Assembly (NCBI GenBank): GCA_041662665.1
Contig: JBAZSC010000004.1
Location: 10,464-74,463, forward strand
DNA length: 64,000 nt
Source: Patescibacteria group bacterium
GTDB lineage: Bacteria > Patescibacteriota > JABMPQ01 > JAQVVF01
Reading direction: 5' to 3'
The stretch's first letter is position 1. Every line of letters starts with the position of its first letter. Below are positions 6,233 to 42,548 of the stretch, in pieces. The translations under genes and the position numbers were made by a program. Under the pieces are notes generated by a model. It was not told the DNA's origin. It saw nothing but the letters and a program-made list of their open reading frames with translations, and searched no databases.

Positions 6233-8623
6233 TTATTCAAAAAAGAAATCTTGGCTATCCGATGTTTCTAAATTAGTTGAATTAGATAAGGCATTCTTCT
6301 CAGCAATCACGAATTTAATCTTTTTTAATGTTCTGAAGTAAAATGATGGAGCAAATGGTCTGTTCTTTGTCTTGATATCTAAAGGATTTGGAACAGGATT
6401 TTTAGGTATCTTTACAAGATAATTTCTAATCTTAAATTTCAAAGTATGAGTTGTTTTGTTTTGATAAATTCTGTATGGTCCTCGCCAAATTCCGTCTCTA
6501 TCTTTAATAAATAGTCTTAAATTCTTTTCTTTGATCTTTGTCTTGTTTAATTTAGATTTTGAATATCTAACAGAGACTCTGAAATTAATATGTTTATTAA
6601 CATTTTTCTGATAGGCTCTTTTGACTGTACCAATATTTGATAATAGCTTTAAGTATCCTGGATAGCTGTTTTTCTTTGTAAAACCATTTAGATGTTTCTT
6701 TTTGTTTCTAATTAATTTGATATATAGATCGTTGATTGATTTTTGTTTAGGAAGAAGATAGAAAAGAAGATCTGCATTATCTTGTTGACTTTGATAAGTT
6801 TGGTTTAAAATTACATTTTCTAAATTAAGTTTTTCAATGAAAGGAATAACTGGAGCTTCAGTATTAATAATATATTCTTCAGTTTTTACACTTTCTGAAT
6901 TTCCAACATTATCAACTGAAAAGAATTTTAGAGTTGTTGTTTCAGAAATTTCGATTGGCGAAGAATAGACTAATGATGAAGTAGTTGGTTCTGTGCCATC
7001 AGTTGTGTAATATGTTGTAGCGACGCCAGAATTATCATCAACTGCTGTCAAGGTAACAGATTGAACTGATGTGTAAGTTTCACCAATTGGAGAAGCAGTG
7101 GTTATTGGTGCTACTGTATCAATAACATAAATCTCTGTTTTCACAGCTTCTAAATTACCAATGGCATTTTCTGAAAAGAATTTTAAGGTTGTATTCGTTA
7201 AAATATCAATCGGACTAGAATATGTTGGTGAAGCTTCTGTTGGGTCTGAACCATCTGTTGTATAGTATGTTGTTGCTGTCTTATTTGGAGTCAAAGTAAT
7301 TGATTGAGCGCTATTGTATGTATCACCTACTGGAGAGGCAGTTGTAACTGGAATATCACTATCCAATACATCGACAATTGTTTGGGCAATTTCCGTATAC
7401 CCTGCTACATTTTCGTGTACTCCATCACCAGAATCATATATGGCCTGTATATCCCAGTAATTACCAGCGTCTCCACCAACTCTAAATTGCCCGATATGTG
7501 GTTTGCTGTCAACTACTATGGCGGACGAGTACGAAGTGGCTATCAGATTTACAAGGTGTGTTTCCCAATCACTTCTTATCTGCCAGTTAGCATTCGACCT
7601 TGCAGTGAATGGTGTCGATAGCAGAACTACAGGTATAATATTATTAGTTACACAGGCATCAAGCATTGAAGTCCAATTGGCAAGAAAGATTGCCTCGGCC
7701 CCTTCTGCACTTGTGTCATCATTTGCGCTGGCTTCTATTATTGCCATCCTGGGGTGTAAATTAACCACATCATTCGTAAATCTTGCAGCAATTTGGGTAG
7801 ATGTTTGACTTCCAATACCCATATTCTGATATGTTGCAGAATGCAAAAGAGAGAATTGGTAACTAATAGAACTACTAAGTGAATATGTCGTACTGTTTTC
7901 AATAAACGAATAGTTTGCTGGATGTCCAGCCACAATAGAATCTCCAATATATACTATTTGAGGAGCTTGCATATAAACTTTGACAGGAAGTATTGAAGTG
8001 TATGGAGATTGTGCCGACCAATTATAATTAGTCGCACTAGGAGTCGCATCGTAAGCAAAATAGGCTGAGTTAGCCGCTTGACCAATTAATACATTCCATT
8101 GGTTACTACCTGCTCCACTAATAACTATTCCACATGCGATATAGTCTCCCTCTTGCACTGTCCAGGTAGTAGAGGGTGTAATATTTTTAGTCGCAGGTAA
8201 ACCAGTTAATTGGGCTAATACGTCTTCTTGATAAATTCTATCAAAAGTTGCGCCATTCTTACGCCATATCTGTATATAATAATTAGTTATATTAGTAACA
8301 TTATTTACGTGAATAGACAAATGGTCTATGACTCCATTTTGTCTAATACGCGACCTGTTATTATTAAGTAACCGATATCCGCTTGTATGTAATGACCCAT
8401 CGACACCCGAGTTGCCACCAACAGTTAATATTGCATCATAGCCACCAGCTTCAACAATATTCGAATTTGGAGCCATATCCCATGCATATGTAGAAGTAGG
8501 TACAAGCAAAATAAGTATCGGGATTAACAAGACCGCAAGTAAAATTAAAAAAGAGTTAAAAATTTTTACTTTTCCATTAAGCCCCCCCCCTCGTACTTTT
8601 TTGTTTATATTTAAATTATCCAT
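6233..8623 (-). CDS. Secreted SGNH/GDSL-family hydrolase with two chitobiase/hexosaminidase-C-like (YYTTDG...) beta modules and a lysine-rich C-terminal domain
   Basis: N-terminal TM/signal peptide. SGNH block I VYIGDSIVAG and block V DSGDGVHEN. Two tandem copies of about 85 aa (TTYYTTDGSDPT...LKFFS). Basic C-terminal 200 aa resembling the C-termini of the 22030-33614 paralog family. Confidence 0.65.
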   Translation of the reverse strand: MDNLNINKKVRGGGLNGKVKIFNSFLILLAVLLIPILILLVPTSTYAWDMAPNSNIVEAGGYDAILTVGGNSGVDGSLHTSGYRLLNNNRSRIRQNGVIDHLSIHVNNVTNITNYYIQIWRKNGATFDRIYQEDVLAQLTGLPATKNITPSTTWTVQEGDYIACGIVISGAGSNQWNVLIGQAANSAYFAYDATPSATNYNWSAQSPYTSILPVKVYMQAPQIVYIGDSIVAGHPANYSFIENSTTYSLSSSISYQFSLLHSATYQNMGIGSQTSTQIAARFTNDVVNLHPRMAIIEASANDDTSAEGAEAIFLANWTSMLDACVTNNIIPVVLLSTPFTARSNANWQIRSDWETHLVNLIATSYSSAIVVDSKPHIGQFRVGGDAGNYWDIQAIYDSGDGVHENVAGYTEIAQTIVDVLDSDIPVTTASPVGDTYNSAQSITLTPNKTATTYYTTDGSDPTEASPTYSSPIDILTNTTLKFFSENAIGNLEAVKTEIYVIDTVAPITTASPIGETYTSVQSVTLTAVDDNSGVATTYYTTDGTEPTTSSLVYSSPIEISETTTLKFFSVDNVGNSESVKTEEYIINTEAPVIPFIEKLNLENVILNQTYQSQQDNADLLFYLLPKQKSINDLYIKLIRNKKKHLNGFTKKNSYPGYLKLLSNIGTVKRAYQKNVNKHINFRVSVRYSKSKLNKTKIKEKNLRLFIKDRDGIWRGPYRIYQNKTTHTLKFKIRNYLVKIPKNPVPNPLDIKTKNRPFAPSFYFRTLKKIKFVIAEKNALSNSTNLETSDSQDFFFE

Positions 8624-9083: not shown

Positions 9084-9155
9084 TACCGCCTAGGGGAATC
9101 GAACCCCTGTTGTCAGGATGAAAACCTGATGTCCTAGCCACTAGACGAAGGCGGC
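9084..9155 (-). tRNA. tRNA-Glu (anticodon UUC)
   Basis: The reverse complement, GCCGCCTTCGTCTAGTGGCTAGGACATCAGGTTTTCATCCTGACAACAGGGGTTCGATTCCCCTAGGCGGTA, folds as a cloverleaf with a TTC anticodon and a GGTTCGATTCC T-arm. It resembles bacterial tRNA-Glu. Confidence 0.8.
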
Positions 9156-9255: not shown

Positions 9256-10782
9256 ATGAAAATAAAAACAACAATTTTAATTTTGTTATGTTTTCTTTTT
9301 ACTCCTTTTTTAACATTAGCGGAAGGCTCATCTGCCATATCCTACAGTTTTACTTGGCCATTAGATAAATGGATCTTTGACATGGAAGGTCAAAAATTTG
9401 GCACTATCAGAGGATCTGGGATTTATCATCTTGGCGATGATATTGGAATACAAGCAAACTCACCAGTTTATGCAATTGCCACAGGAGTTGTAAAAAATAT
9501 TGGCGTTTATACTGATTTCGGCACTGTTATTTTAATTGAACACACATTAGCAAATCAAGAAAAAATTGTTTCATTATATGGTCATCTTGGACGAGACACT
9601 CAAGTTGAAAAAGGACAATTTGTTAATAAAAATCAAATTATTGGTTATATCGGTACTACAGATGTTAATGGAGGCTGGCCAGAACATCTTCATTTCGGAA
9701 TCAGAAAAGGCGCCTATGTTACAAATTGGGTCTATTGGGGCTTAGGGTCAAAGGACAAATTAAATGATTGGCATAATCCAACTGATTTTTTATGGTACAA
9801 AATTAATAATCCAGATGTTAATTCTGGAAAAATTGTAACCTCCCCAAATTATCCTGGACGATCACACATTAGAATTTTTGACGAACAAGGTCTTGCCATT
9901 CCAACTTTTGATTTCTTCGCTTACCCTCCAAAGAACAAACAAGGATCTCAAATTTCTCTTGGCGATATCAATAATGATCAAAAACAAGAATTAATAATTA
10001 GCTCAAATAGTTATAAACCACAAATAAAAATTTTTAACAAAAATTCACAAGACTTTATTGCCAAATTCAAACCATTCTCCAAAAAATATAATGGCCAAAT
10101 TAATCTTGCAACGACAGATTTAAATTTAGACGGTCAAGATGAAATTATTGCCACATCTAGTTCAAATCAATATCCAAAAATAAAAATATTTTCTTTATCC
10201 GCCGAAGTCCCGCAGGACGAAGGCGGACTATACAAAACAACAAACACTTTTATAGAATTAACAAAAATTCCAAGTCCATTTAGCCATAAAATAAAATGCG
10301 GAATTAATTTAACAACTATTGATCTAAATAATGATGGCAAGAAAGAGATTCTCGCTACACCAGCCAATAATAAAAAATCAGTTTTAAAATATTGGGACGG
10401 CACAACTTGGCAAATTTTAAAATCCAGGATTTTCAAAAAAACTACCGCAAAATTAACAACTGGCGATATTGATGCAGATGGCAATGAAGAAATAATTGCT
10501 GGCTCACAATCAAATACAAGATCAGTCATCAAAATTATTAATAAAAATGGACACATCAGAAAGAAAAAAATTAAACCATTTGCCAGATATAATCAAGACG
10601 GAATAAATATTTCAACAGTTGATTACAATAATGATGGCATTACTGAAATAATTACTTCAATTGCCAAAAATGGCTCGCCTAGAATTAAAGTTTTTCAATA
10701 TCCTCAAAATATTGCCATTGCCAATTTTTTAGCCTATAATGAAAATTTCACTGGTGGTGTAAATATAGTGGGAATAAAATAA
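9256..10782 (+). CDS. Secreted M23-family metallopeptidase fused to FG-GAP/VCBS-like repeats
   Basis: Signal peptide. M23 motifs HLGDDIG (HxxxD) and EHLHFGI (HxH). At least five DxNxDGxxE repeats (DINNDQKQE, DLNLDGQDE, DLNNDGKKE, DIDADGNEE, DYNNDGITE). Confidence 0.8.
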   Translation: MKIKTTILILLCFLFTPFLTLAEGSSAISYSFTWPLDKWIFDMEGQKFGTIRGSGIYHLGDDIGIQANSPVYAIATGVVKNIGVYTDFGTVILIEHTLANQEKIVSLYGHLGRDTQVEKGQFVNKNQIIGYIGTTDVNGGWPEHLHFGIRKGAYVTNWVYWGLGSKDKLNDWHNPTDFLWYKINNPDVNSGKIVTSPNYPGRSHIRIFDEQGLAIPTFDFFAYPPKNKQGSQISLGDINNDQKQELIISSNSYKPQIKIFNKNSQDFIAKFKPFSKKYNGQINLATTDLNLDGQDEIIATSSSNQYPKIKIFSLSAEVPQDEGGLYKTTNTFIELTKIPSPFSHKIKCGINLTTIDLNNDGKKEILATPANNKKSVLKYWDGTTWQILKSRIFKKTTAKLTTGDIDADGNEEIIAGSQSNTRSVIKIINKNGHIRKKKIKPFARYNQDGINISTVDYNNDGITEIITSIAKNGSPRIKVFQYPQNIAIANFLAYNENFTGGVNIVGIK

Positions 10783-21166: not shown

Positions 21167-21862
21167 ATGATTTATCTTTGGTACATTTTTGTCGCCTTAT
21201 TGCCAGGTTTATTCTGGCTCTGGTTTTATCGTCGAAAAGACAGACAAAATCCAGAACCATTAAAACAAATTTTCAAAATCTTTGTTTGGGGCATGGCTGC
21301 AACAATTCCTGCTATTGCTTTGGAATTCTCCGCTGATTTTTTTATTCCTTATGCTTCGTCAACAAAATATTTAGCCATGGTTTTAAGCTCATTTTTAATC
21401 GTCGCTCCGATTGAAGAATTTTTTAAATATTTAGTTTTAAAGCACAAAGCAGCAGAAAGCAAAGAATTCAACGAACCAATTGATGGAATTATTTATGGCA
21501 TTGTTGTTGGCTTAGGCTTTGCGACATTAGAAAACTTTTTGGTAACTTTAAGCGATGGCGGAACAGTTATTATTTTACGCTTTGCAACTGCTACTTTAAT
21601 GCATGCGATTTGTTCTGGTATCGTTGGTTATTATCTTGCTCGTCAAAAATTCCATCCTCAAGGCAACAAATCAAGCGTCATGAAAGGACTTTTCCTTGCC
21701 ATTTTTTTGCATGGCTTATACAATTCCGTCGCCTCTTACAATTCATCATATTCAATCATTTTGCTCGCTATTTTAATCATTGTCATGTATCTGATGCTTT
21801 CTCAAGATATTAAAGCCATAAAAAGATTAAAAATTACTGCTCAACAAAATAATCAAGAATAA
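21167..21862 (+). CDS. PrsW-family intramembrane metalloprotease
   Basis: Multi-TM protein with the EEFFKYL (EExxK), FATATLMH and HGLYN motifs of the PrsW family. Confidence 0.65.
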   Translation: MIYLWYIFVALLPGLFWLWFYRRKDRQNPEPLKQIFKIFVWGMAATIPAIALEFSADFFIPYASSTKYLAMVLSSFLIVAPIEEFFKYLVLKHKAAESKEFNEPIDGIIYGIVVGLGFATLENFLVTLSDGGTVIILRFATATLMHAICSGIVGYYLARQKFHPQGNKSSVMKGLFLAIFLHGLYNSVASYNSSYSIILLAILIIVMYLMLSQDIKAIKRLKITAQQNNQE

Positions 21863-22029: not shown

Positions 22030-24078
22030 TTATCTACCTATGGCATAATATCTTTCTGAAAAATCAAATGGAGAATTCAAATAAATCGTAAAAGTATTTT
22101 CTTTGTTATTTTGTCTGGCGTCTAAATCAGACCATTCTCTTAGTTCAACATCATATAATTTTAAATGCAAGTCGCTTTCTTTTAAGCCAGTCATTTTCTT
22201 TTTTAAAACTTTAAATTCTTTTTTAGTATAATAAAAAATCACTTTAATTTTAAAGCTATCAGACAATTGATTTAAATCAGTTGTTATCAACCAATTTTTT
22301 TTCAACAACATATTTTCTGCATTAACATAAGTTATTGGATATTTTTTAAATCTTTGCACTTGCCAATAATAATTATATTTTTTAAGACTCTTAGAATATT
22401 TCTTAAAAACAAAATCAAAATCATTAGCAAAATAATTATGGTTTTTTCCTTTAATCTTGACTGTTTTATCGTTTGCTTTCTTAGTTACAAATTTAGCTTT
22501 TTTAATTACATACTTTTTACTGACAACAGAAGATTGATTGCCAGCATTATCAATTGCCATAAATTTCAAAGTCATGTCTTTGGAAACAACAATTTTCTTG
22601 CTGTAAACATCGGAAGTTGTTTTTGGCTTCTTGCCATTAGTTGTATAATAAATTTTATCCACGCCAGAAAGAGCATCAGTTGCTGACAAAGCAACTTTTT
22701 TAATATTTTTATAAGTGCCTTTTTTTACTGATGCCAAAACTTCTGGAGCTGTCGCATCATAAACAATGCTGGCTGACACTGCTGCTGTTTCTGCATACCA
22801 AGTATCTCGAAATTTTGCATAAACAGTTTTTGTCCCCTCGCTAGCTGATAAAGTAAAAGACTGCGAAGTTCCATATGTCGTCCATGCTGATCCAAAAGAA
22901 CTGCTGTTTTCTGTTGTTGCCATTTCTAATGTATCGCTTGAAGAAGACAAACCAAGCGTTAAACTTGAAGAATTAGTGTAAGTTGCTCCAGAATTAATTA
23001 TTAATGCTGCTAAAGACGGACCAGGAGTATAGGTATAAACCAAACCAGTAGCAATATCATAATTACACACTTGCGACCGATTATTAGAATCAACATCAAT
23101 AGAAGTATAATAGCCAGAACTAGAAGCACCTATAGTATATGTCGCCCAAGAGCCAGACACATTAGTCGCATATTTCAAACCATTGCCAGAATAAGTAATT
23201 CTAACTTTATCATTAGAATCAATTGCCAAAGAATTATTTGATCCCACAGTGCCAGAACTGTCTAAAATTTGTACTGTCCCCCAAAAGCTGGGCCTACCAG
23301 TAATATACTTCAAATCATAACTTACATTATCAAAATAACAAATATGAACATTATCGCCGGAATCAACGCCAAGATCCATATGCGTAGAAGTATAGTCACC
23401 CATATCAACATCATCCAAAGTTTCTCTCACCCAACTCCCAGAAGAATTTGTTACAAATCGCAGATGATTATTAGTATCATCATAATAACTTATCTGCGGA
23501 TAGTTATTGGAATCTAACTCAATTGCTGTATATTTTCCCATATCAGTACTTGTATCATCAACCACTTCTGTGCTCCAAGAACCATAATGGCCTTTGGCAT
23601 ATTTCAAATCTTGTCCTGTTGAATAATAATAAGAAATATGCGCTTCGCTGTCAGATCCAACCGCAATTGAAGTGTACCTGCCTACAACACCAGTTGCATC
23701 TACCTGTTCCGTCTGCCATGATCCAGAAACATTAGTTGCATATTTCAAAGAAGTATTATCTGTATCATAATAACTGATATGCGCTTTATTATTAGAATCC
23801 AATGCTAATGAAGAATATCTACCAACATCGGGACCGCCAAAACCATCTACTATCTCGCTTGTCCAAGAACCAGTTAAATTATTGACATATACCAAATCTT
23901 CATCACCTATAGCATAATAACAAATATGAATTTTATCATTCGTATCAACTTTTAATTCAGTGTCTGTAATATTTGCTAATATCGTAATTGTACTCGCTGA
24001 CCAGTCAGCCGCTTTTACATTTTGCCCAACAAAAATTACACTAATTAAAATTAAAAATAACCACAAAATTTTTCGCAT
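22030..24078 (-). CDS. Secreted repeat protein, paralog 1 of 6: signal peptide, YATN-type propeller-like repeats, chitobiase-C-like module and lysine-rich C-terminal domain ending YYAIGR
   Basis: Signal peptide MRKILWLFLILISVIFVGQNVKAADW; repeats of about 46 aa (SLALDSNNKAHISYYD.TN..LKYATNVSGSW); a KIYYTTNGKKP...KFMAIDNAGN module; lysine-rich tail. Confidence 0.8.
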   Translation of the reverse strand: MRKILWLFLILISVIFVGQNVKAADWSASTITILANITDTELKVDTNDKIHICYYAIGDEDLVYVNNLTGSWTSEIVDGFGGPDVGRYSSLALDSNNKAHISYYDTDNTSLKYATNVSGSWQTEQVDATGVVGRYTSIAVGSDSEAHISYYYSTGQDLKYAKGHYGSWSTEVVDDTSTDMGKYTAIELDSNNYPQISYYDDTNNHLRFVTNSSGSWVRETLDDVDMGDYTSTHMDLGVDSGDNVHICYFDNVSYDLKYITGRPSFWGTVQILDSSGTVGSNNSLAIDSNDKVRITYSGNGLKYATNVSGSWATYTIGASSSGYYTSIDVDSNNRSQVCNYDIATGLVYTYTPGPSLAALIINSGATYTNSSSLTLGLSSSSDTLEMATTENSSSFGSAWTTYGTSQSFTLSASEGTKTVYAKFRDTWYAETAAVSASIVYDATAPEVLASVKKGTYKNIKKVALSATDALSGVDKIYYTTNGKKPKTTSDVYSKKIVVSKDMTLKFMAIDNAGNQSSVVSKKYVIKKAKFVTKKANDKTVKIKGKNHNYFANDFDFVFKKYSKSLKKYNYYWQVQRFKKYPITYVNAENMLLKKNWLITTDLNQLSDSFKIKVIFYYTKKEFKVLKKKMTGLKESDLHLKLYDVELREWSDLDARQNNKENTFTIYLNSPFDFSERYYAIGR

Positions 24079-24152
24079 ACTTTTTTATTAATTAGTAGTG
24101 ATATTCCTGCCTGATAACAGTCAGGTATAACAAAATTTGCGTAAATTCACAA

Positions 24153-26000
24153 TTATCTTCCGATTGCATAATATCTTTCCGAATAATTAAATGGCGAACT
24201 TAAATAAATCATAAAAGTATTTTTTTTAGTATTCGGCTTGACTTGCAAATCCGCCCATTCTCTTGATTCAGAATTATATAATTTTAGATAAAGATTTTTC
24301 TCTTTCAAACCTTTTACCTTTTTCTTTAAAGCCTTAAATTCTTTATTAGTATAAGAAAATACTAATTTTAATTTTACTGGTTTGCTAGAATTATATTTTT
24401 GATAATCAGTTTTAATTTTCCAATATTTCTTTATCAAATTATGCTTTGCGTCAACAAAAAGTTTCGTATACTTTTTTTGCCTCTCAACCAAAAAATATCT
24501 TTTTGTCTTTTTAAAACTTTTTGGAAATTTTTTGAAAGTCAAATTTAATTCTCTTGCATAATATTTTTTATTTTTTTTCTTGATTTTAACTTCATTCTTT
24601 TTCTTGGATTTTTTTGTTGTAAATTTTGGATTGCCAACATATTTAACAATTTGTGAAACAACATCTGATTCAGCATGCCAAGCATCTCTATATTTTACAT
24701 AAACAGTTTTCTTGCCTTTTTTTGCTGGCATTTTAAATGTCTTATCAGCCAAATAACTTTGCCAAGTTTTGTTTGAAAAATCAGATTTTGTTGACACAAT
24801 CATTTCGACCGGACTTTCAGTCAAAGAAGATGTAATATGAATTTTTCTATAAGCAGAATATTTACGTCCATAATTTATTTCTGTTATTTGATTTGAAGGA
24901 CCAGGAGTATTAGCAAGTTTTAATTTCTCGCTTGTCTGATCATAATATGCGATATAGGCTCTGTTTTTTGAATCCACATCCAAAGATGGATAACCAACAA
25001 CATCGCTGTCATTCAAAGTATTTTTTACAAAAGAATCAGTTACATTGCTCATATAGCCTATCCAATTTCCTCCTCCAACTGTTCCGCCATAATAACTTAA
25101 ACGAACCTTATTATCAGAATCTAAAGCTAAAGAATTATTAAATGCTGTAAAATCAGGCAAGATTTCACTATCCATATCGCTTATCGTCCAATTACTGTCT
25201 GCCGTTGTTTTAGTCGCATATTTAAGCGTCGTATTAGGATTAGCTAAATACAAATAAGCCAAATGTGCTGTATTATTGCTATCAAACTTCAAAGAATTAA
25301 AATAACCAGTTCTATAAGTACTATCAATCGCGCTCAATACCCAACTGCCGGAAACATTAGTCGCATATTTCAAATAATCATTTGTCCCTTCAAAATAAGC
25401 AATATGAACTTTATTATTAGAATCAATAGCCAGAGAATTAAACGTTCCACTATTATCAACCGTATCCAAAGTCTCATAAACCCAATCACCAGTAACATTA
25501 GTCGCATATTTCAAATGATCATTAGTACCATCATAATAAGCAATATGCGCCTTATTATTTGAATCCAAGGCTAAAGACGGATATGAACCAGCTTCAATTG
25601 TCGGATCTAAAATTGTTACTTGCCAAGAACCAGAAGCATTAGTCGCATACCGCAATTGATCTTCAATCATAGCATAATAAGCCAAATAAAAATTATTATT
25701 AGAATCAACTGCCGAAGAAATAAATAATCCTGCATAAAGAGTATCATCAACAGTCTGTTGCTCCCAAGCCCCAGAAGCATTTGTAGCATACTTTATTTTA
25801 TGATCAGTATTATCAAAATAACCAATATAAATCTTATCATTACTGCCAACTTTTAAAGAAACAACAGCCGCACCTTCTGACACCATTGGCACGTTTCCCA
25901 TATCAGCCACATCGCTAAAAACCCAATCAGCAGCCTTAACATTTTGGCCAAAAATAAACAAAGTAAAAACAACAATCAAAATTAACAATCCTTTTTTCAT
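24153..26000 (-). CDS. Secreted repeat protein, paralog 2 of 6
   Basis: Same architecture: signal peptide, 7 repeats, beta module after the TPGPS linker, and a lysine-rich C-terminal domain ending RYYAIGR. Confidence 0.8.
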   Translation of the reverse strand: MKKGLLILIVVFTLFIFGQNVKAADWVFSDVADMGNVPMVSEGAAVVSLKVGSNDKIYIGYFDNTDHKIKYATNASGAWEQQTVDDTLYAGLFISSAVDSNNNFYLAYYAMIEDQLRYATNASGSWQVTILDPTIEAGSYPSLALDSNNKAHIAYYDGTNDHLKYATNVTGDWVYETLDTVDNSGTFNSLAIDSNNKVHIAYFEGTNDYLKYATNVSGSWVLSAIDSTYRTGYFNSLKFDSNNTAHLAYLYLANPNTTLKYATKTTADSNWTISDMDSEILPDFTAFNNSLALDSDNKVRLSYYGGTVGGGNWIGYMSNVTDSFVKNTLNDSDVVGYPSLDVDSKNRAYIAYYDQTSEKLKLANTPGPSNQITEINYGRKYSAYRKIHITSSLTESPVEMIVSTKSDFSNKTWQSYLADKTFKMPAKKGKKTVYVKYRDAWHAESDVVSQIVKYVGNPKFTTKKSKKKNEVKIKKKNKKYYARELNLTFKKFPKSFKKTKRYFLVERQKKYTKLFVDAKHNLIKKYWKIKTDYQKYNSSKPVKLKLVFSYTNKEFKALKKKVKGLKEKNLYLKLYNSESREWADLQVKPNTKKNTFMIYLSSPFNYSERYYAIGR

Positions 26001-26050
26001 TATTTTATTTTAATTAACTTTTAACTTTAGATTTTAGACTTTTAACTCAC

Positions 26051-27895
26051 CTATCTGCCGATAGCATAATATCTTTCCGAATAATTAAATGGCGAATTTA
26101 GATAAATAATAAAAGTATGATTAGTTGTATCAGGTTTAACTTGTAAATCAGCCCAACTATCAGATTCAGAAACATAATATTTCAGATGCAAATTCTTTTC
26201 TTTTAATCCTTTAACTTTCTTTTTCAAAACTTTGAATTCATCGCTAGTATACTGAAATACTAATTTTAATCTAACTTGCTTGCTTCCTGTATATTTATTA
26301 AAGTCAGTATTTACTTTCCAATATTTTTTTAACAAATTGTGCTTTGCATCTGCAAAAAGTTTTGTGTATTTTAATTGTCTTTCAATTAGAAAATATCGCT
26401 TTGTATTTTTGAATTTAGTTGGATATTTTTTGAATTTAAGCTTTAGATCTCTTGCGTAATAAGTTTTATTCTTTTCTTTAACTTTCACTTCATTAGATTT
26501 CCTTGCTTTTTTTGTTACAAACTTTATTGGATTGCCAGTATATTTTACTTCTTGAGAAACAACATTAGATTCAGCATGCCAAATATCTCTGAATTTCATA
26601 TAAACAGTATTTTCACCTTTTTCTGATGGCATTCTAAATGTTGTATCAGCTGAATATGTTTTCCAAGTTTTATCTGAAAAATCAGATTTTGTTGAAACGA
26701 TCATTTCTGTTGGAGTTCCTGCAACTGTTGATTTTATATTAATATTTCTTGTTGCTGAATAATTTCTACCATTATTTATTTCAGAAGAAGTGATACTTGG
26801 ACCAGGAGTGAAAGCATAATTCAAATCATTATCAGTAGTATTATAATATGAAATATGAATACGATTATTTGAATCTACGTCAAGTGAAATTTGATTATAG
26901 TATCCAAATAATACCACTATGTATGATCCAACATTATCAATCACATTATATGTCCATGACCCTGAAGTATTAGTTGCATACTTTAATTGTTGCTCAGTAA
27001 CATCATAATAACCAATATGTACACCATTATTGTTATCAACAGCTATCGAAGTATTATATCCTGCTTGATTTGCCGTATCCAAATTCGTTGCAACCCAAAC
27101 ACCAGTAGAATTAGTAATGTATTTCAAATCTAAATTTGTAGCATCTAAATAACTAATATGGATGCTATTGTTAGTCCCAATCGCCAAAGAAGAATACCAT
27201 CCAGCCTCAACTGAATTATCTAAAGTACTTGTTGACCAAACACCAGACAAACTATTCGTCGCATATTTTAGAGTACTATTAGTTTCATCACGATAACTAA
27301 TATGCGCAAACCCATTTGAATCAATACCAAGCGAATTAAAAATGCCCACATCACCAACTGAATCAACTGTTGTCAACACCCAAGAACCGGTTGCATTAGT
27401 TGCATATTTTAAATCACTATTAGTTGAATCATAATAGCTAATTTGAACCGCATTATTTGCATTCAATACTATTGATGTATTATTTATATCAAAAATACCT
27501 ACTGTAATAGTACCTGAATTATCAACAGTTGTAGCAACCCAAGAACCAGAAGCATTTGTGGCATATTTCAAATTACTATTAGTATCATCAATATAACTAA
27601 TATGAGATTTGTTATTACTATCAATTGCTATTGAAACACCTTCGCCTACGTTTCCTGCACTATCTACAGTTGTAATAGCCCACGAACCTGACTCATTTGT
27701 TATATATTTCAAATCATTAGTACCAACTTCAAAATAAGCAATATGCACAAAGCCATTATGATCAACAGCAATCGCATTATCAGCGCCAGTATTTACAGCA
27801 TCGATTGAAGATTTCTGCCAATCCGCAGCCTTCACATTTTGGCCAAAGATAAACAAACCAACAATGGCCAGACAAATTAATAAATACTTCCGCAT
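26051..27895 (-). CDS. Secreted repeat protein, paralog 3 of 6
   Basis: Same architecture; ends RYYAIGR. Confidence 0.8.
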   Translation of the reverse strand: MRKYLLICLAIVGLFIFGQNVKAADWQKSSIDAVNTGADNAIAVDHNGFVHIAYFEVGTNDLKYITNESGSWAITTVDSAGNVGEGVSIAIDSNNKSHISYIDDTNSNLKYATNASGSWVATTVDNSGTITVGIFDINNTSIVLNANNAVQISYYDSTNSDLKYATNATGSWVLTTVDSVGDVGIFNSLGIDSNGFAHISYRDETNSTLKYATNSLSGVWSTSTLDNSVEAGWYSSLAIGTNNSIHISYLDATNLDLKYITNSTGVWVATNLDTANQAGYNTSIAVDNNNGVHIGYYDVTEQQLKYATNTSGSWTYNVIDNVGSYIVVLFGYYNQISLDVDSNNRIHISYYNTTDNDLNYAFTPGPSITSSEINNGRNYSATRNINIKSTVAGTPTEMIVSTKSDFSDKTWKTYSADTTFRMPSEKGENTVYMKFRDIWHAESNVVSQEVKYTGNPIKFVTKKARKSNEVKVKEKNKTYYARDLKLKFKKYPTKFKNTKRYFLIERQLKYTKLFADAKHNLLKKYWKVNTDFNKYTGSKQVRLKLVFQYTSDEFKVLKKKVKGLKEKNLHLKYYVSESDSWADLQVKPDTTNHTFIIYLNSPFNYSERYYAIGR

Positions 27896-27951
27896 AATTT
27901 TTTTGTTTTAAATTTTTAAATTTCTGAAACTAAATTTATATAAATTATATA

Positions 27952-29802
27952 TTATTTACCAATTGCATAATATCTTTGCGAAAAATTAAACGGAGATTTC
28001 AAATAAACCGTAAAAGTATTTTTCTTTGTATTGCGTTTAGCTGACAAATTAGTCCACTTTTTTGATTTCAAATTATATGCTTTTAGATATAAATTCTTTT
28101 CTTTCAACCCTTTTACTTTTTTCTTTAATTTTTTAAATTCTTTTTTAGAATATGAAAATACTAATTTTAATTTAACATTCTTACTTAATTTATATTTTGA
28201 AAAATCAGTATTAATTTTCCAATATTTTTTTAACAAATTATGCTTTGCATCCACAAAAAGTTTTGTAAATTTCTTTTTTCTCACAACCAAAAAATATCTT
28301 TTTGTTTTTTTAAAAGCTTTTGGATATTTTTTGAAAGTCAAATTTAATTCTCTAGCATAATATTTTTTATTTTTCTTTTTAATCCTTACTTCATTTTTTT
28401 TCTTCGCTTTTTTTGTAACAAACTTTGGATTACCGACATATTTGACATTAAAAGATACAACAGCAGATTCAGCACTATAGACATCTCTAAATTTAACGTA
28501 AATTGTTTTTATGCCTTTTTTTGAAGGCATTTTAAAAATCGTATTAGCCAAATAACTGCTCCAAATCTTATTAGAAAAATCAGACTTTGTCGAAACAATC
28601 ATTTCAGTAGGACTGCCAGAAACTGAAGATGCAATATTAATTTTTCTATAAGCTGAATAATCCCTTCCATTATTTATTGTTATTGTTTGAACTGAAGGTC
28701 CAGGAGTATAAGTATAATTCAAACTAGTATTAACTAAACCAGCACTAGTTTTAAAATAAATAACATGTGTTCGATTCATTGAATCTATTCCTAACGATAT
28801 TGGACGATAATATGCATTAAAAGTTTCAAAAGAAAACAAAAGACTGTACGATCCAGTATCCTGTTGATTATAAATTGACCATTGTCCAGAAACATTTGTC
28901 GCGTATTTTAATCTGCCATTTAAAATATCATGATAAGCAACATGCAATTTATTATTATCATCAATTTTTAATGAAGGATAATAGCCCACTTGACCTGCAC
29001 TGTCATTATCAATAACACTTGCAACCCATGCTCCTGAAATATTAGTAATATATTTTAAATCAGAGTTAGTATAATCCAAATAAGCAATATGAATTTTATT
29101 ATTTGAATCAATCGCTATGGAAGACTGAAGACCTACCGATCCATTAGAATCTAAAACTACAGATAGCCAAGAACCACTATCATTAGTAATATATTTTAAA
29201 TCGGAATTAGTAGTATCACGATAAGAAATATGCACCTTATTATTTGAATCCAATGCCAAAGAAGAACTACCTCCAACATCAGTACTAGAATCTATTGTTT
29301 CATTTGCCCATGAACCAGACACGTTTGTCGCATATTTCAAATTGCTATTATCTGAATCATAATAGCTTACATATATTTTTTTATTTCCATCCAAAGCCAT
29401 TGATACTTGTCCCAAGCCAATAGTTCCACTATTATCAATTATCTCGAAAACCCATGTTCCATTAACATTATTCGCATATTTTAACCAATCATTCGTTCTA
29501 TCTTCATAAACAATATATACTTTTCCATTAACATCTATTCCCAAAGAAGAATTACCAACATTAACAGAGTTATCAACAATTTCTGCCATCCAAGTACCAG
29601 AAGAATTAGTCGCATATTTCAAATCAGAATTAGTATTATCAAAATAACTAATATGAACTTTGTTATTTTGATCAATTGCTAATGCATTAACACTTCCAGC
29701 AGATGCCTCCAATTCCTGCGACTGCCAATCAGCAGCCAAAACATTTTGGCCAAACAGAAACAGACCAACAATGGCCAGACAAATTAATAAATACCTCCGC
29801 AT
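27952..29802 (-). CDS. Secreted repeat protein, paralog 4 of 6
   Basis: Same architecture; the 7 repeats are counted explicitly; ends RYYAIGK. Confidence 0.8.
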   Translation of the reverse strand: MRRYLLICLAIVGLFLFGQNVLAADWQSQELEASAGSVNALAIDQNNKVHISYFDNTNSDLKYATNSSGTWMAEIVDNSVNVGNSSLGIDVNGKVYIVYEDRTNDWLKYANNVNGTWVFEIIDNSGTIGLGQVSMALDGNKKIYVSYYDSDNSNLKYATNVSGSWANETIDSSTDVGGSSSLALDSNNKVHISYRDTTNSDLKYITNDSGSWLSVVLDSNGSVGLQSSIAIDSNNKIHIAYLDYTNSDLKYITNISGAWVASVIDNDSAGQVGYYPSLKIDDNNKLHVAYHDILNGRLKYATNVSGQWSIYNQQDTGSYSLLFSFETFNAYYRPISLGIDSMNRTHVIYFKTSAGLVNTSLNYTYTPGPSVQTITINNGRDYSAYRKINIASSVSGSPTEMIVSTKSDFSNKIWSSYLANTIFKMPSKKGIKTIYVKFRDVYSAESAVVSFNVKYVGNPKFVTKKAKKKNEVRIKKKNKKYYARELNLTFKKYPKAFKKTKRYFLVVRKKKFTKLFVDAKHNLLKKYWKINTDFSKYKLSKNVKLKLVFSYSKKEFKKLKKKVKGLKEKNLYLKAYNLKSKKWTNLSAKRNTKKNTFTVYLKSPFNFSQRYYAIGK

Positions 29803-29874
29803 AATTTTTTTGTTTTTATTCCACCAAAGTTCCGCAGAACGTAGGTGGATTAATTTTTAAAAACTTAAAATAAA

Positions 29875-31686
29875 CTATTTTATTCCAATCCCAAAAGTCC
29901 TTTTGCTAAAAGAAATTGGAGAATCAATTATTAAAGTAAAAGTTCTCTTTTTTAAATTTAAAGTTGCAAATGAATTTTTCCACTTTTTCTTTAATTTATT
30001 GTAATATAATAATTTCAAATCACTTTGTTTTAATGTCTTATTATTCTTTTTTAATTTTTTGAATTCTTTTTTAGAATAATTAAAAGTCACTTTTAATCTG
30101 AAATTATTCTTGGCTTTTTTATAAGTATATTTATTTAAATCATCTGTCACTAGCCAATATTTTTTTAATAGCTTATTTTTGTCTATTTTCTTAAAATAGT
30201 TACTGAATAATTTTGATTGAACAAAATATTTTTCTTTTTTTAAATTTTTTGGATATTTTGTCATTACAAAATTCAAATCTCTCGCAGAATAAACCTTGCC
30301 TTGCTTTTTCAACAAAACTTCATTAACTTTTCTAGCCTTTTTTGTTACAAATTTTGGATTTTTAATGTATCTAATTGTCTTTGTTAAAGCACCTGATTCA
30401 GCAAACCATTGATCTCTGAAATTGACATAAACTGTTTTTGTTCCATCAACTTTTGATAAAGTAAAAATCTTTGATGTATCATAAGCTTCCCAATTTGCAT
30501 TTGCAAAATCAGCATTTTCAGAAATTATCATTTCAGTTGGACTGCCTGCTGAAGATAAAGACAATGCTACTGTTCTTAAGGCAGTATATGCTTTATTAGA
30601 ATTAATCTTTAAACTTGTATTTGTTGGTCCCATAGAAGCAGCGTATTTTAAATCGCCATTTGTATGATCCTGATAAGCAATATGAATTCTATTTAGATCA
30701 TCAACCTTAATTGAAGTTTGAAAACCTAAAATTAAAGTATCGCTTCCTTGATCAACAATATATTTCTGAAAGGTTCCTGAAATATTTGTCGCATATTTCA
30801 AAGAATAATTTGGATAACCATCATGATAACTAATATGAGCATAATTATTTTTATCCAAGCTCAAACTAGAAAACATTCCAGTCAATCCTCCTGCTAAAAC
30901 TGCAGTATCAATTGTTGTTTTCTGCCAACTTCCAGATAAATTTGTAATATATTTCAAAGCTTGCACTCCGCCATCATAATAGCTAACATGCACTTTATTA
31001 TTTGTATCAACAGCAATTGAAGAATATTGTCCAACTCCTCCATTATCAATTGCTGAGCTTAAAAAAGATCCTGATTCATTTGTTGCGTATTTTAACCATT
31101 GATTACTGCTATCATAATAGCTAATATGAGCTTTGCCATTTGAATCAACTGCAATTGATGTATTGCTTGTAGAAGATAATGTTTCTACATCGTAGAAAAA
31201 CCAAGTTCCAGATGACTTGATTGCATATCTAACTTTTGATCCATTATAATAGCTAATATTCAATCGATCACTTGAATCAATCGCCATATCCACAAAAGTC
31301 CCGCCCAAAGCATCTAAAACAGAATTTCCCCAATTTCCTCCAGCATTTGTGGCATATTTCAAATCATCATTTACAGCATCATAATAAGCAATATGAATTT
31401 TGTTCGCTGAATCAACCACTAAAGAAGGATAAAGCCCAACCATTACTGAACTCTCGTCAATTATCGTAATTTGAAAACTGCCAGAACTATTAGTCGCATA
31501 TTTTAATTTACCATCACCAAGATATGCAATATGAACATATCCTAACGAATCAACACTAATTGATGTTCCATCTCCAGCAAAACCAGTTGCATCAACTGTT
31601 GTTTTTTGCCAATCTGCTGCCAACACAGTATGACCAAACAACATCAGGCAAAACATTGCCACCAAAATTAATAATTTCTTTTTCAT
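29875..31686 (-). CDS. Secreted repeat protein, paralog 5 of 6 (more divergent)
   Basis: Signal peptide, LKYATN repeats, beta module and a lysine-rich tail ending FGIGIK. Confidence 0.75.
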   Translation of the reverse strand: MKKKLLILVAMFCLMLFGHTVLAADWQKTTVDATGFAGDGTSISVDSLGYVHIAYLGDGKLKYATNSSGSFQITIIDESSVMVGLYPSLVVDSANKIHIAYYDAVNDDLKYATNAGGNWGNSVLDALGGTFVDMAIDSSDRLNISYYNGSKVRYAIKSSGTWFFYDVETLSSTSNTSIAVDSNGKAHISYYDSSNQWLKYATNESGSFLSSAIDNGGVGQYSSIAVDTNNKVHVSYYDGGVQALKYITNLSGSWQKTTIDTAVLAGGLTGMFSSLSLDKNNYAHISYHDGYPNYSLKYATNISGTFQKYIVDQGSDTLILGFQTSIKVDDLNRIHIAYQDHTNGDLKYAASMGPTNTSLKINSNKAYTALRTVALSLSSAGSPTEMIISENADFANANWEAYDTSKIFTLSKVDGTKTVYVNFRDQWFAESGALTKTIRYIKNPKFVTKKARKVNEVLLKKQGKVYSARDLNFVMTKYPKNLKKEKYFVQSKLFSNYFKKIDKNKLLKKYWLVTDDLNKYTYKKAKNNFRLKVTFNYSKKEFKKLKKNNKTLKQSDLKLLYYNKLKKKWKNSFATLNLKKRTFTLIIDSPISFSKRTFGIGIK

Positions 31687-31763
31687 GATTTTCCCTCGTC
31701 CGCCATGCTTCTTCGCTTAAGCGAAGAGCGAAGGCGGATATTAAATAGTAATTATTTTAAAAT

Positions 31764-33614
31764 TTATTTTTTTCCTATTGCATAATAAATTTCATTCCAA
31801 GATATCGGCGAAATCAAAGTGATAGCAAATGTCCTATTTTTCACAGAATGTACGGCATTTAAATTATGCCATTTCTTTTCTTTAACATTATAATATTTTA
31901 AAACCAAACTACTTTCTGACAAACCTTTATTTCTATTTTTTAAAGTCTTGAATTGCTTTTTTGTATATTTAAAAACAAATTTAGTTTTAAAATTATCAGC
32001 TAATTTATATTTATTAAAATTACCTTTTATTTTCCAATATTCTTTAATCAAATTTTTCTTGGCTGCAATATAAGTTTTTGAATATTTTCTATATCTTTTT
32101 ACTTGCCAAGAATATTTTGCTTTTTTCAAACCTTTTGGCAATTTCAAAAATTTTAAATAAAATTTTTGAGCAGTATATTTTTTATTTTTCTTTTTTATTA
32201 AAATTTCTTTGCTTTTTGCATTTTTTGTTACAAAAGTTGGATTTGGCAAATATTTAATTGAATCAGAAACAGTTGCTGATTCCGCATACCATTGATCTCG
32301 AAATTTTACATAAATAGTCTTTTTGCCAACCCTAGAAGACATTTCAAAAACTTTATTCACATTATATGTTTCCCATTCTGCTCCAGCAAAAGTAGAATAT
32401 TCAGACAACATCATTTCTGTTGGATTGCTAGTTGCAGATAAAACCAAATCAACATCTTTAAAATTTGTATATTTTTTACCTGCTTCTATTACAACTTCTG
32501 GACTTATTGGACCAAGTACATCAGCAAATTTTACTTCACCATCCCAAGGAGAATAAGTATGCAGATAAAATAGACCAACGTAAAGTCTGTTTGAAGAATC
32601 CATAGCCAAAGAAATTGGCTGTTCAGCTGTATGAATTGCATCTCCAATATCACTAACAGCTACAGTTGAAAAACTTGTCCCAACATTATTTGCCAGCTTA
32701 AAATCAAAGTTATCCACATCATAATATCCAATTCTTACTCTTGAATTGCTATCAACTACTAGAGAAGAATATATTCCAACATCTCCAGCAGTATCAACTG
32801 TCGAATTTGACCAATAGCCCAACATATTATTTGCGTATTTCAAATCTCGATTCCCGCGATCATAATAACTAATATGAACGAAATCACTATCGTCAATTTT
32901 TATTGAACTAAACTCACCAACATTACCGCTATCAACGGTTTGAGCCACAAAATTTCCAGAAGAATTTGTAATATATTTTAAAGATAGATTTGCCGAATCA
33001 TAATAACTGATATGGACTTTATTGTAATCATCAACAGTTAATGAAGAAAATAGTCCGACAAAAGTACTACTGCTATCTATTGTTGATAATGTAAAACCAG
33101 TTCCATTAGAATTTGTTGCGTATTTTAAATCGTCATTTGTTAAATCATAATAACTAATATGCACATAACCTAATGAATCAACACCAATCGAATCATACAT
33201 ACCAACTTCGCCTGTTGTATCAATTGATGATGCTGCCCACACTCCAGAAGCATTAGTCGCATATTTCAAATCAGAATTAGCATAATCATAATAACTAACA
33301 TGCGCCTTATCATTATAATCTATTGCAATTGATGGATACTGTCCCAAACCAGAACCAAGATCAATTGTTTCACTCACAAAACTGCCAGATGCGTTTGTTG
33401 CATATTTTAGATAATAAGTTGCACCAGTTGTCTCTAAATAAACCAGATGCGCTTTGCTATTTGAATCCAAAGCAATTGCCACAATAGGACCAACACCTAC
33501 TCCTCTCGACAATGACTCAAATTGCCAATCCGATGCCTTTGCTTGACCAAAAAAACAAAAGACACAAGACAACGTTGCAAAAACCACTCCTAAAATTAGA
33601 GATTTTTTTCTCAT
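31764..33614 (-). CDS. Secreted repeat protein, paralog 6 of 6 (more divergent)
   Basis: Signal peptide, LKYATN repeats and a lysine-rich tail ending YYAIGKK. Confidence 0.75.
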   Translation of the reverse strand: MRKKSLILGVVFATLSCVFCFFGQAKASDWQFESLSRGVGVGPIVAIALDSNSKAHLVYLETTGATYYLKYATNASGSFVSETIDLGSGLGQYPSIAIDYNDKAHVSYYDYANSDLKYATNASGVWAASSIDTTGEVGMYDSIGVDSLGYVHISYYDLTNDDLKYATNSNGTGFTLSTIDSSSTFVGLFSSLTVDDYNKVHISYYDSANLSLKYITNSSGNFVAQTVDSGNVGEFSSIKIDDSDFVHISYYDRGNRDLKYANNMLGYWSNSTVDTAGDVGIYSSLVVDSNSRVRIGYYDVDNFDFKLANNVGTSFSTVAVSDIGDAIHTAEQPISLAMDSSNRLYVGLFYLHTYSPWDGEVKFADVLGPISPEVVIEAGKKYTNFKDVDLVLSATSNPTEMMLSEYSTFAGAEWETYNVNKVFEMSSRVGKKTIYVKFRDQWYAESATVSDSIKYLPNPTFVTKNAKSKEILIKKKNKKYTAQKFYLKFLKLPKGLKKAKYSWQVKRYRKYSKTYIAAKKNLIKEYWKIKGNFNKYKLADNFKTKFVFKYTKKQFKTLKNRNKGLSESSLVLKYYNVKEKKWHNLNAVHSVKNRTFAITLISPISWNEIYYAIGKK

Positions 33615-33796
33615 TATTTTTGTTTTTTATTTTAATAAATTTTAATTACTGATATCTTAACATTTTTTTACCTATTTAACAAAAAAGCTATCCACTGCCA
33701 AAATTTACATTATGCCAATAATAATGTATAATAAAATTAATCAAATATCATTTTTAAAAACAGAATTAAAATTAGAAAAAGTATTTGCATTATTTG

Positions 33797-33836
33797 CATA
33801 TTCGCAATATTTGCATAAATTCGTATATTTGTATTA
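33797..33836 (+). promoter_or_regulatory. Conserved about 40-nt promoter-like block ending at the hsp20 start codon (candidate leaderless promoter: TTCGCA-17-TATATT)
   Basis: catattcgcaatatttgcataaattcgtatatttgtatta is near-identical (1 mismatch) to the block upstream of ruvB and is related to the block upstream of ferredoxin. Confidence 0.5.
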
Positions 33837-34393
33837 TGCCTAAACAATCTTTTTTCGCAAGATTTTTACAATCAAAACAAGTTGCTGACAATCCTACGCC
33901 GCCAAAACCACCAGTTGGACATCTGCCAACTCCAAAGACTTCTCAGCCAGATCCAGCTCCAATCCAAGTTCAACAGCAACAACAACCACAACCTCAACAA
34001 AATTCTTCTCAATCTTCACAAGATAGTCAAGAAAATTACGAAGGCCAGCTTGCTATTGATGTTTATCAAACTCCTCAAGAAATAGTTATTAAATCAACAA
34101 TTGCTGGTGTTAATCCAGAAAACATTGACATCAATATCGATAATGACATGGTTACAATCAAAGGCGAAAGAAAAAATATCACTGAAGCAAAAGAAAATGA
34201 TTATTATTATCAAGAATGTTATTGGGGCTCTTTTTCAAGATCAATTATCTTGCCAGAAGAAGTCGTTGCTGATAATGCTGTTGCTGAATTAAAAAATGGA
34301 ATTCTGACAGTCAGATTACCAAAAGCAAATGCCGTTAAAACCAAAAAAATAGAAGTCAAAATGGCGAGCGATACAGTGACTAGTAATCAATAA
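33836..34393 (+). CDS. Hsp20/alpha-crystallin family small heat-shock protein with a Q/P-rich N-terminal extension
   Basis: Alpha-crystallin domain (LAIDVYQT...VTIKGER...AELKNGILTVRLPK). The start is assigned to the ATG at 33836 (MPKQSFF). Confidence 0.85.
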   Translation: MPKQSFFARFLQSKQVADNPTPPKPPVGHLPTPKTSQPDPAPIQVQQQQQPQPQQNSSQSSQDSQENYEGQLAIDVYQTPQEIVIKSTIAGVNPENIDINIDNDMVTIKGERKNITEAKENDYYYQECYWGSFSRSIILPEEVVADNAVAELKNGILTVRLPKANAVKTKKIEVKMASDTVTSNQ

Positions 34394-40582: not shown

Positions 40583-40618
40583 ACTAATTTTCCGACGCTC
40601 TGACGTTCTGACGCTCTG
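40583..40618. repeat. 8-nt tandem microsatellite, about 4 units of CTCCGACG/GACGCTCT
   Basis: tccgacgctctgacgttctgacgctctg. Confidence 0.7.
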
Positions 40619-40620
40619 AT

Positions 40621-40648
40621 TTTCCGAAATAAAAAAGAGCCCATTAGG
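40621..40648 (-). terminator. Terminator of island gene A
   Basis: The minus-strand RNA forms agaguccuaaugggcucu followed by U6. The identical sequence recurs at 41431-41458. Confidence 0.65.
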
Positions 40649-40666
40649 ACTCTATAAAAAAGAGCT

Positions 40667-41203
40667 TCAGTTCATCTTCATCCTGTAAGCTTCACAAACC
40701 TTGAAAGTCAGACTTCCCCGAAAATCATAATAGTTGGTAGCACGCTTGCCATTTCCATTCACTGGCAAGTTTTCATAATCGTAAAAAGTTGAATCGTCAA
40801 TGTGACTCAACGAAATCTTTCGAGCCATTTTGCGATTCACATTGATTGCAGTCATCATTCGACCCTTGTATCGCTTCGGCCGATGTCCACCGATCAACCG
40901 CTCAGCGCGACGATTGTCTTCACCAACCTTCACGCCAACAGTCAACAGATGACGCCGCCTCAAGTTCGAATAAGGAGTGCCATTCCCACGTTCACCATGA
41001 TGTTTTCCAGTCCCGGCAACAGGCTTGCCCCGAACCGGATCTCTCATCCATTCCATCACATTCTTCTTCTCTTCACGCTTCCTTTCCACTTGCTTTCGCA
41101 CTTCTTCGTCATACGACATCCTGTTCTCAATTTCTCTTCTCTGATAGTCTCTGTCAGCAGTATTCTTGTTTGCAACACAAGCAGTATCTCGATGAATGCC
41201 CAT
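40667..41203 (-). CDS. Island protein A, hypothetical (AGTGKHHG-motif family)
   Basis: Start reassigned to the ATG at 41203, preceded by ggagggaaagag (SD). The ORF-track N-terminal extension (TTG start at 41311) contains the sigma70 promoter. The product is charged and R/K/E-rich. Confidence 0.6.
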   Translation of the reverse strand: MGIHRDTACVANKNTADRDYQRREIENRMSYDEEVRKQVERKREEKKNVMEWMRDPVRGKPVAGTGKHHGERGNGTPYSNLRRRHLLTVGVKVGEDNRRAERLIGGHRPKRYKGRMMTAINVNRKMARKISLSHIDDSTFYDYENLPVNGNGKRATNYYDFRGSLTFKVCEAYRMKMN

Positions 41204-41273
41204 CTCTTTCCCTCCACGCGCCTGTTTTTCCAGGCTGTTCGTCCCTCCACGACACCAGAAAACAGAATAAAAC

Positions 41274-41301
41274 ATTATATCACAACCATATAATTTGTCA
41301 A
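41274..41301 (-). promoter_or_regulatory. Canonical sigma70-type promoter of island gene A (TTGACA-N16/17-TATAAT)
   Basis: The minus strand reads ttgacaaattatatggttgtgatataat. Confidence 0.65.
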
Positions 41302-41378
41302 GATTTTTCAATATTTAAGCTTATTTAAAACAAAAAAACTACAAACATTTCCGAAAATCTGACAATCAGAAGCTCAGA

Positions 41379-41428: not shown

Positions 41429-41430
41429 AA

Positions 41431-41458: not shown

Positions 41459-41477
41459 GGTACAAATTACAAATAGT

Positions 41478-42546: not shown

Positions 42547-42548
42547 CA

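Follow-up and report, generated by a model that had tools for sequence, protein, structure and literature searches.

How might the secreted proteins of a patescibacterial cell be held at its surface? The question is raised by a DNA stretch of 64,000 nucleotides from a Patescibacteria group bacterium (GenBank assembly GCA_041662665.1, contig JBAZSC010000004.1, positions 10,464 to 74,463), referred to below as the window, in which six consecutive genes encode proteins with a signal peptide at one end and a lysine-rich tail at the other. A reading of the sequence alone had described this tail as a novel C-terminal domain shared by seven secreted proteins, and had suggested that it either anchors them to an anionic cell-envelope polymer or serves as a sorting tag. 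Based on profile searches, a structural model and a comparison of the proteins that carry it, the tail is predicted to be an autonomously folding β-sandwich of ~157 residues, which constitutes a small, previously unannotated family of the Candidate Phyla Radiation (CPR) and is nearest to the ZU5, GAIN-B and FIIND domains. As for its function, a non-catalytic polycationic domain that would tether secreted proteins to the anionic cell surface is proposed here; we infer both the ligand and the anchoring role, and give the proposal an even chance of being correct.

The genes in question and their flanks are arranged as follows.

22030-33614 (-): tandem array of six paralogs, head-to-tail open reading frames (ORFs) of 603-682 aa with spacers of 50-77 bp
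22030-24078 (-): paralog 1, C-terminal domain at 22033-22494, Lys 17.5%, net charge +15; CHB_HEX_C_1 upstream in the ORF
24153-26000 (-): paralog 2, C-terminal domain at 24156-24626, Lys 26.8%, net charge +37; the copy modelled by AlphaFold
26051-27895 (-): paralog 3, C-terminal domain at 26054-26524, Lys 21%, net charge +26
27952-29802 (-): paralog 4, C-terminal domain at 27955-28425, Lys 31.2%, net charge +49; identical to NCBI MFA6296837.1
29875-31686 (-): paralog 5, C-terminal domain at 29878-30354, Lys 26.4%, net charge +38; terminus RTFGIGIK
31764-33614 (-): paralog 6, C-terminal domain at 31767-32237, Lys 25.5%, net charge +38; terminus IYYAIGKK, no Ser before the last strand
33785-34393 (+): HSP20, flanking the array
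21167-21862 (+): PrsW, flanking the array and convergent with it

The interval from which the domain was first described (22030-22560) is the 3' end of the ORF of paralog 1, and the conserved module proper occupies 22033-22494. All six proteins are built in the same way, from a signal peptide, ~8 propeller-like repeats, an Ig-like domain and the ~157-aa tail, which runs up to the stop codon; their N-termini resemble classical signal peptides, e.g. MRKYLLICLAIVGLFIFGQNVKA↓ADW. The six tails can be aligned over their full length, with 45-54% identity to the first copy and up to 78% between pairs, and their alignment contains 30 invariant columns at a mean column identity of 64%. A profile of the tail scores 198-250 bits on each of the six copies, and no other protein of the window reaches E < 0.6. 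The tails are strongly basic (net charge +15 to +49, pI 9.7-10.6) and rich in aromatic residues (Tyr, Phe and Trp together 13-18%), and the heads of the same six proteins are acidic, with pI values of 4.6-5.7 and net charges of -7 to -22. The presence of a module of ~160 aa on all six paralogs, as described in the sequence-only reading, is therefore borne out, but the lysine content of about 30% given there was too high, since 17.5-31.2% is found, with a mean of ~25%. Likewise, the C-terminus described as near-invariant, [SQ/E]RYYAIG[RK], is present in four of the six copies, and the remaining two end in SKRTFGIGIK and NEIYYAIGKK. Mean identity among the six paralogs is 53% for the tails versus 39% for the heads, and such stronger conservation of the tails is what would be expected if the module had a constant self ligand.

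The repeats of the heads (window 22495-24078 and the equivalent parts of the other five genes) follow the pattern 'LKYATNxSGSW…D..G.vG.y.SlalDsnnk.HisYyd', with ~8 per head. They are β-propeller-like, yet no Pfam or NCBIfam model matches them above threshold, and only faint SBBP, RCC1_2 and aRib matches are seen.

Outside this locus, a word-indexed protein search with the six tails returned a single relative, P0001. The near-uniqueness that this result suggested was overturned by an exhaustive profile hidden Markov model (HMM) search over 1.84 billion protein representatives, in which 63 clusters fell within the family cut-off of E ≤ 1e-3, 43 of them at ≤ 1e-10 and 14 at ≤ 1e-30; the tail is thus conserved well beyond the window, as the earlier description of a domain required. 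All family members with a source name come from metagenome-assembled genomes (MAGs) of "Patescibacteria group bacterium" and are annotated as hypothetical or by their head domain only. Among 185,579 GTDB species representatives, searched with a narrow alignment, two matches were obtained, one in a Patescibacteria MAG and one in a MAG labelled Candidatus Saccharibacteria; a scan of JGI metagenome contigs gave three further loci only, and no occurrence of the domain was found in the viral contigs and phage records that were scanned. The family is genuine, although public data contain few members of it.

Nearly all family members have 0-2 residues between the end of the domain and the C-terminus, and the family-wide terminus reads [YF][YF][AGTV]IGxK. 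All of the family domains are basic, with net charges of +6 to +58 and Lys contents of 9-39%, and the heads are almost all acidic or near neutral and contain 2-7% Lys. Of the 157 columns in the family alignment, 33 are at least 50% K/R and 37 more are 25-50% K/R, and 5 are at least 25% D/E. The K/R columns are spread evenly along the domain without forming a patch, and the conserved columns correspond to hydrophobic and aromatic core residues; such a combination is the signature of non-specific electrostatic polyanion binding by a rigid scaffold.

Recurrence of the tail on otherwise unrelated secreted proteins, which had been claimed from the window itself, is confirmed by a Pfam scan of 55 full-length members, in which the head families are very different: CHB_HEX_C_1/Fn3_assoc is found in 19, propeller heads include Lactonase/YNCE, FG-GAP, Reg_prop, DUF5122, BNR_4 and NHL, and further heads are GH18, Metallophos, a β-helix and a GDSL lipase. 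A crude signal-peptide test was passed by 44 of the 58 sequences that start with Met, most of the others being fragments. No anchor domain is present among the families listed by the scan of these 55 proteins, and the Pfam models of SLH, CWB2, LysM, GW/SH3_8, SLAP and choline-binding modules match neither the tails nor the full-length proteins.

Between HSP20 and PrsW, the copy number of the propeller-tail gene is one in the related loci L005 and L006, two in L001 and six in the window, and tandem tail-bearing paralogs also occur on the unrelated contigs L007 and L009. The array of the window is a recent tandem expansion, the heads of which are diverging faster than the tails. Proteins of the window match NCBI MFA6296837.1 and MFA6296834.1, both from a Patescibacteria MAG, and L001, which was reached via P0001, is a syntenic 35-kb contig on which the two paralogs lie between HSP20 and PrsW.

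One of these two genes (L001 8717-10570), the ortholog of paralog 4, is interrupted by an in-frame TAA at 9992-9994. The same split gene recurs on seven contigs from four JGI samples and therefore represents not a sequencing error but a pseudogene or split gene that has become fixed. An alternative genetic code was considered for this stop and rejected, because TAA is here an ordinary nonsense codon and not a case of recoding.

Searches of Pfam, NCBIfam and PDB sequences gave no meaningful match for single tails or profiles, in agreement with the earlier statement that the tail is no named domain; it also aligns to no nucleic-acid-binding or ribosomal-like basic domain, a relationship that had been named as the one that would indicate a different role. 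Weak matches to Collagen_bind_2 and NagJ_C (E ~0.003-0.009), ThyX and HMG box were attributed to noise or to a general likeness to glycoside-hydrolase-like sandwiches. Modelling by AlphaFold2 with 7 sequences gave a predicted local distance difference test score (pLDDT) of 86, and with 54 family sequences the tail of paralog 2 was modelled at pLDDT 96 and a predicted template-modelling score of 0.89, all five models being at least at 95.3 and identical in secondary structure. The model consists of ~11 strands and three short helices, and YYAIG forms the last strand (residues 150-156, pLDDT > 95). Its best fold matches are the β-sandwiches of ZU5, GAIN-B and FIIND; the best Foldseek match is ankyrin ZU5A-ZU5B (E 0.026, probability 0.8) with nothing below E 1e-3, values that would indicate resemblance of fold class rather than proven homology. 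The Pfam models of ZU5 (PF00791), GPS and GAIN gave no match at E ≤ 10 with either 7 or 54 tails, and the CPR tail, which is extracellular, bacterial and polycationic, has only 3-15% sequence identity to domains of the ZU5, GPS and GAIN type. According to Table S4 of 10.64898/2026.05.12.724683, ECOD places ZU5, Nup98-C and GAIN-B in one homology group within the X-group "Glycosyl hydrolase domain-like", which accounts for the mixed fold matches. The domain first described as novel is therefore new to annotation but not novel as a fold.

The ZU5/GAIN-B/FIIND fold group includes the microbial MAIN domains, which are GAIN-B-like and are flanked by large secreted ectodomains, adhesive or enzymatic, on one side and by a surface anchor such as LPXTG or SLH on the other (Brogan & Rudner, bioRxiv 2026, 10.64898/2026.05.12.724683). 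The MAIN family was defined by PSI-BLAST from YfkN; its members cut themselves within the turn that leads into the last strand, at a conserved HX(S/T) site (in YfkN HF↓S), and the products are held together non-covalently (10.64898/2026.05.12.724683). No Patescibacteria entries were found in the available parts of the supplementary tables of the same work (10.64898/2026.05.12.724683). The CPR tail, which is predicted to be a β-sandwich nearest to ZU5/GAIN-B, resembles MAIN in that it stands behind a signal peptide and large ectodomains of an adhesive or enzymatic kind, partner domains are held in common (CHB_HEX_C_1, Metallophos, glycoside hydrolases and propellers), and the C-terminal pattern L.L.YY….W……N.F.v….F…FAI resembles that of MAIN by eye. 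In contrast to MAIN, the CPR tail has an extreme positive charge and lacks HX(S/T), H-x-[ST] being present within the last 22 residues in none of 59 family members, and the CPR protein simply ends, with no LPXTG, SLH or transmembrane anchor after the domain. Because two defining features of MAIN, the HX(S/T) site and the downstream anchor, are missing, the tail is not filed as a MAIN domain; instead, it can be regarded as a variant of the MAIN/GAIN-B/ZU5 fold class that is terminal, polycationic and non-catalytic and in which the HX(S/T) site was lost or was never present.

Taken together, export, the terminal position, the diverse heads and the pairing of a conserved tail with a variable head best support a non-covalent surface tether. 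In the proposed mechanism, the proteins would be exported by the Sec pathway with removal of the signal peptide. The acidic head, either a propeller or an enzyme, would then be kept on the cell by the tail, the surface of which would be covered entirely with lysines, through non-covalent electrostatic binding to an anionic component of the envelope; a wall glycopolymer, teichoic-acid-like polymers and anionic lipid are candidate ligands. The tail could thereby take the role that SLH, CWB2, GW or SLAP modules have in Firmicutes. Furthermore, a variable repertoire of displayed surface proteins may arise through tandem duplication, as the heads evolve faster than the conserved tail to which they are attached. 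SLAP, the basic C-terminal part of Lactobacillus S-layer proteins, and the GW modules of InlB and Ami are basic and bind anionic wall polymers, and CWB2 is the wall-binding module of the C. difficile Cwp family. The CPR tail is comparable to SLAP, GW, CWB2 and SLH in that one conserved module is attached to many secreted heads, often in paralog clusters, whereas it has no sequence relationship to them (no Pfam matches), possesses a different fold and is a single 157-aa domain rather than a set of repeats.

Several points weigh against a terminal tether derived from this fold class. First, in P0034, P0040 and P0041 (833-885 aa) the domain is internal, with ~360-400 further residues behind it and no IGxK ending, so that it is not obligatorily C-terminal. 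Second, since any polyanion, DNA and a host surface included, would be bound by a polycationic domain, self-anchoring is not distinguished from such binding. Third, alignment by hhalign of the 54-sequence tail profile with 3- and 8-sequence streptococcal MAIN alignments gave non-significant E values of 0.64 and 0.68, which is a weak test with a narrow MAIN set of short fragments that does not include YfkN. As a separate observation, the residues that follow the internal domain in P0034, P0040 and P0041 are suggested by the Pfam scan to form a DUF5122/Rax2-like propeller.

Instead of an envelope component of the producing cell, the tail may bind an external polyanion, serving in adhesion to a host bacterium, the surface of which is negatively charged, or capturing extracellular DNA or anionic polymers for the enzymatic heads. 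The electrostatic features are the same as those on which the anchor model is built, no second attachment device is left after signal-peptide cleavage, and the hydrolase and phosphoesterase heads would fit scavenging. Cultivated members of the Patescibacteria are obligate episymbionts according to PMC11623550, which also counts in favor of external binding. However, a conserved tail with a variable head fits constant self-binding and variable target-binding better than the reverse, and no similarity to a known DNA-binding domain was found by the Pfam, NCBIfam and PDB sequence searches. External binding is the main rival of the surface tether and is considered unlikely.

A C-terminal sorting signal processed by a dedicated machinery, for which the PrsW-like protease or the transglutaminase-like enzyme had been put forward by analogy with LPXTG/sortase and with the C-terminal domain (CTD) of the type IX secretion system (T9SS), appears improbable. 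The extreme C-terminal position in nearly all members and the conserved [YF][YF]AIGxK ending would suit such a signal; in addition, PrsW adjoins tail genes in the window, L001, L005 and L006, a Transglut_core gene adjoins a tail-bearing gene in L008, and another is located at 56500-57582 of the window. However, YYAIG is the buried last β-strand of a folded domain rather than a free tag, no hydrophobic helix follows it and there is no linker, the domain is internal in the three proteins mentioned above, and no NCBIfam sorting-domain model matches. Signals for sortase, exosortase or rhombosortase were looked for in the tails, and no LPXTG or PEP motif, hydrophobic segment or NCBIfam match was found. 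The check for a co-occurring processing enzyme that had been proposed earlier speaks against PrsW, the adjacency of which is confined to syntenic genomes with near-identical PrsW (E ~1e-138) and is absent from L007-L013; moreover, PrsW is convergent with the array in the window and is hence not co-transcribed with it. PrsW was accordingly rejected as a general processing partner, the adjacency being local synteny.

As regards T9SS, the CTD and the CPR tail are alike in being folded β-sandwiches at the extreme C-terminus that are common to diverse secreted proteins, but the CPR tail differs in charge and fold, no machinery associated with it was identified, and neither NCBIfam nor Pfam gave a CTD match for the tails. 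The organism is represented by a Patescibacteria MAG. T9SS belongs to diderm Bacteroidota, and Patescibacteria are not known to possess an outer membrane.

The Transglut_core protein of the window (56500-57582, +) is encoded 23 kb from the array and has a homolog (E 5e-55) at L008 3131-4273, where, on an unrelated contig, the gene is divergently adjacent to that of the tail-bearing protein P0012. Lysine-rich domains could be transglutaminase substrates, an idea that is drawn from this one co-occurrence and may reflect a single coincidence.

Functional MAIN/GAIN autoproteolysis at F↓S (…SPFN[FY]↓S[EQ]RYYAIGR), after which the 9-residue strand would stay non-covalently bound in a force-releasable module, is very improbable. 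Its appeal lies in the best fold matches, GAIN-B, ZU5 and FIIND, in an architecture that parallels that of MAIN proteins, and in an aromatic-Ser pair (F-S or Y-S) that five of the six window copies have one loop ahead of the last strand and that is similar to the MAIN site HF↓S. In FIIND domains, cleavage takes place at SF↓S. The pair is not conserved across the family, however, W-N being found instead in paralog 6 and its ortholog, and, as given above, none of the 59 members has H-x-[S/T]. With the last strands in register (YAI versus FAI), the catalytic positions read S-E-R, and no sequence similarity to MAIN was detected with the narrow streptococcal set. Since nothing follows the last strand, cleavage would free only a nonapeptide and no anchor.

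Finally, the idea that there is no real domain, and that lysine-rich low complexity arose by AT-rich drift in recent duplicates, draws on the ~30% GC content of the genome and on the recent tandem duplication of the paralogs, but has practically no chance of being correct and is effectively refuted already by the family search (63 clusters, drawn from many samples, in which aromatic and hydrophobic core positions are conserved), by the column analysis, by the confident AlphaFold2 fold and by the acidic heads of the same proteins, with Lys at only 2-7%.

Returning to the surface tether, a more far-reaching claim is made only tentatively and is itself rather doubtful, namely that the tail is the first Patescibacteria-specific cell-envelope (or host-surface) attachment module, a ZU5/GAIN-B/MAIN-derived sandwich that would have given up autoproteolysis and a separate anchor and would itself act as a polycationic, salt-sensitive tether. 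Little is known about how Patescibacteria build and decorate the surface that mediates their obligate attachment to a host. If the claim holds, the module would mark out which proteins these episymbionts display at their surface, variable propeller adhesins and scavenging enzymes among them, and a shared C-terminal module would give a sequence handle by which the displayed proteins of uncultured CPR bacteria could be listed. The biochemical hypothesis offered is a simple one, in which the module would bind an anionic polymer in a salt-reversible manner. With the CPR tail, the known range of the ZU5/GAIN-B/MAIN fold also grows by a polycationic form that is terminal and non-catalytic and comes from a phylum new to it, which bears on the reuse of this ancient fold.

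The seventh protein to which the domain had been assigned is an SGNH/GDSL hydrolase encoded elsewhere in the window.

6419-6814 (-): probable, marginal divergent domain copy, residues ~604-735 of the SGNH/GDSL hydrolase ORF 6233-8623

The hydrolase contains two CHB_HEX_C_1 domains and then a basic region; the putative domain copy has a loop insertion and no YYAIG ending, and an extension of ~60 aa (6236-6418) with an acidic end runs past it. The profile of the six paralogs misses this protein (hhalign E 0.28; no hmmsearch match). With the 63-member HMM, residues 604-735 align in colinear order to model positions 15-151 and score 10.7 bits, a value reached by none of 2000 composition-preserving shuffles, the highest of which scored 6.8. 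Among the ORFs of the window and the related loci, the hydrolase is the next-best match after the six paralogs (E 0.0044, the following match being at E 0.21), and hhalign of its tail with the family gives E 0.0022 at a probability of 12.8%. A GDSL lipase with a canonical tail occurs elsewhere in the family. The tail of the hydrolase is thus a probable but unproven divergent copy; the sharing of the domain by seven proteins stands for the six paralogs, and the seventh is only marginally related.

The remaining features of the window are as follows.

44102-53180: surface glycopolymer cluster with two Wzy_C proteins (O-antigen-ligase-like), a PMT_2 glycosyltransferase, a VTT-domain protein, a GT1/GT4 glycosyltransferase and a Polysacc_synt flippase
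~40600-43000: GC-rich island, GC content 0.38-0.39 versus ~0.30
40667-41311 and 41478-42338 (-): two paralogous Arg/Glu-rich ORFs of the island with the common motif 'P[VI]AGTGKHHG'
9084-9155 (-): tRNA gene
59111-59197 (+): tRNA gene

The glycopolymer cluster could conceivably make the polymer to which the basic domain would bind. The GC-rich island, in which many ORFs overlap on both strands and for which neither Pfam nor Rfam gave a match, may be of foreign or mobile origin. Over nearly all of positions 1-64000 the GC skew is negative regardless of gene orientation, one 2-kb bin (6-8 kb) being at ~+0.04.

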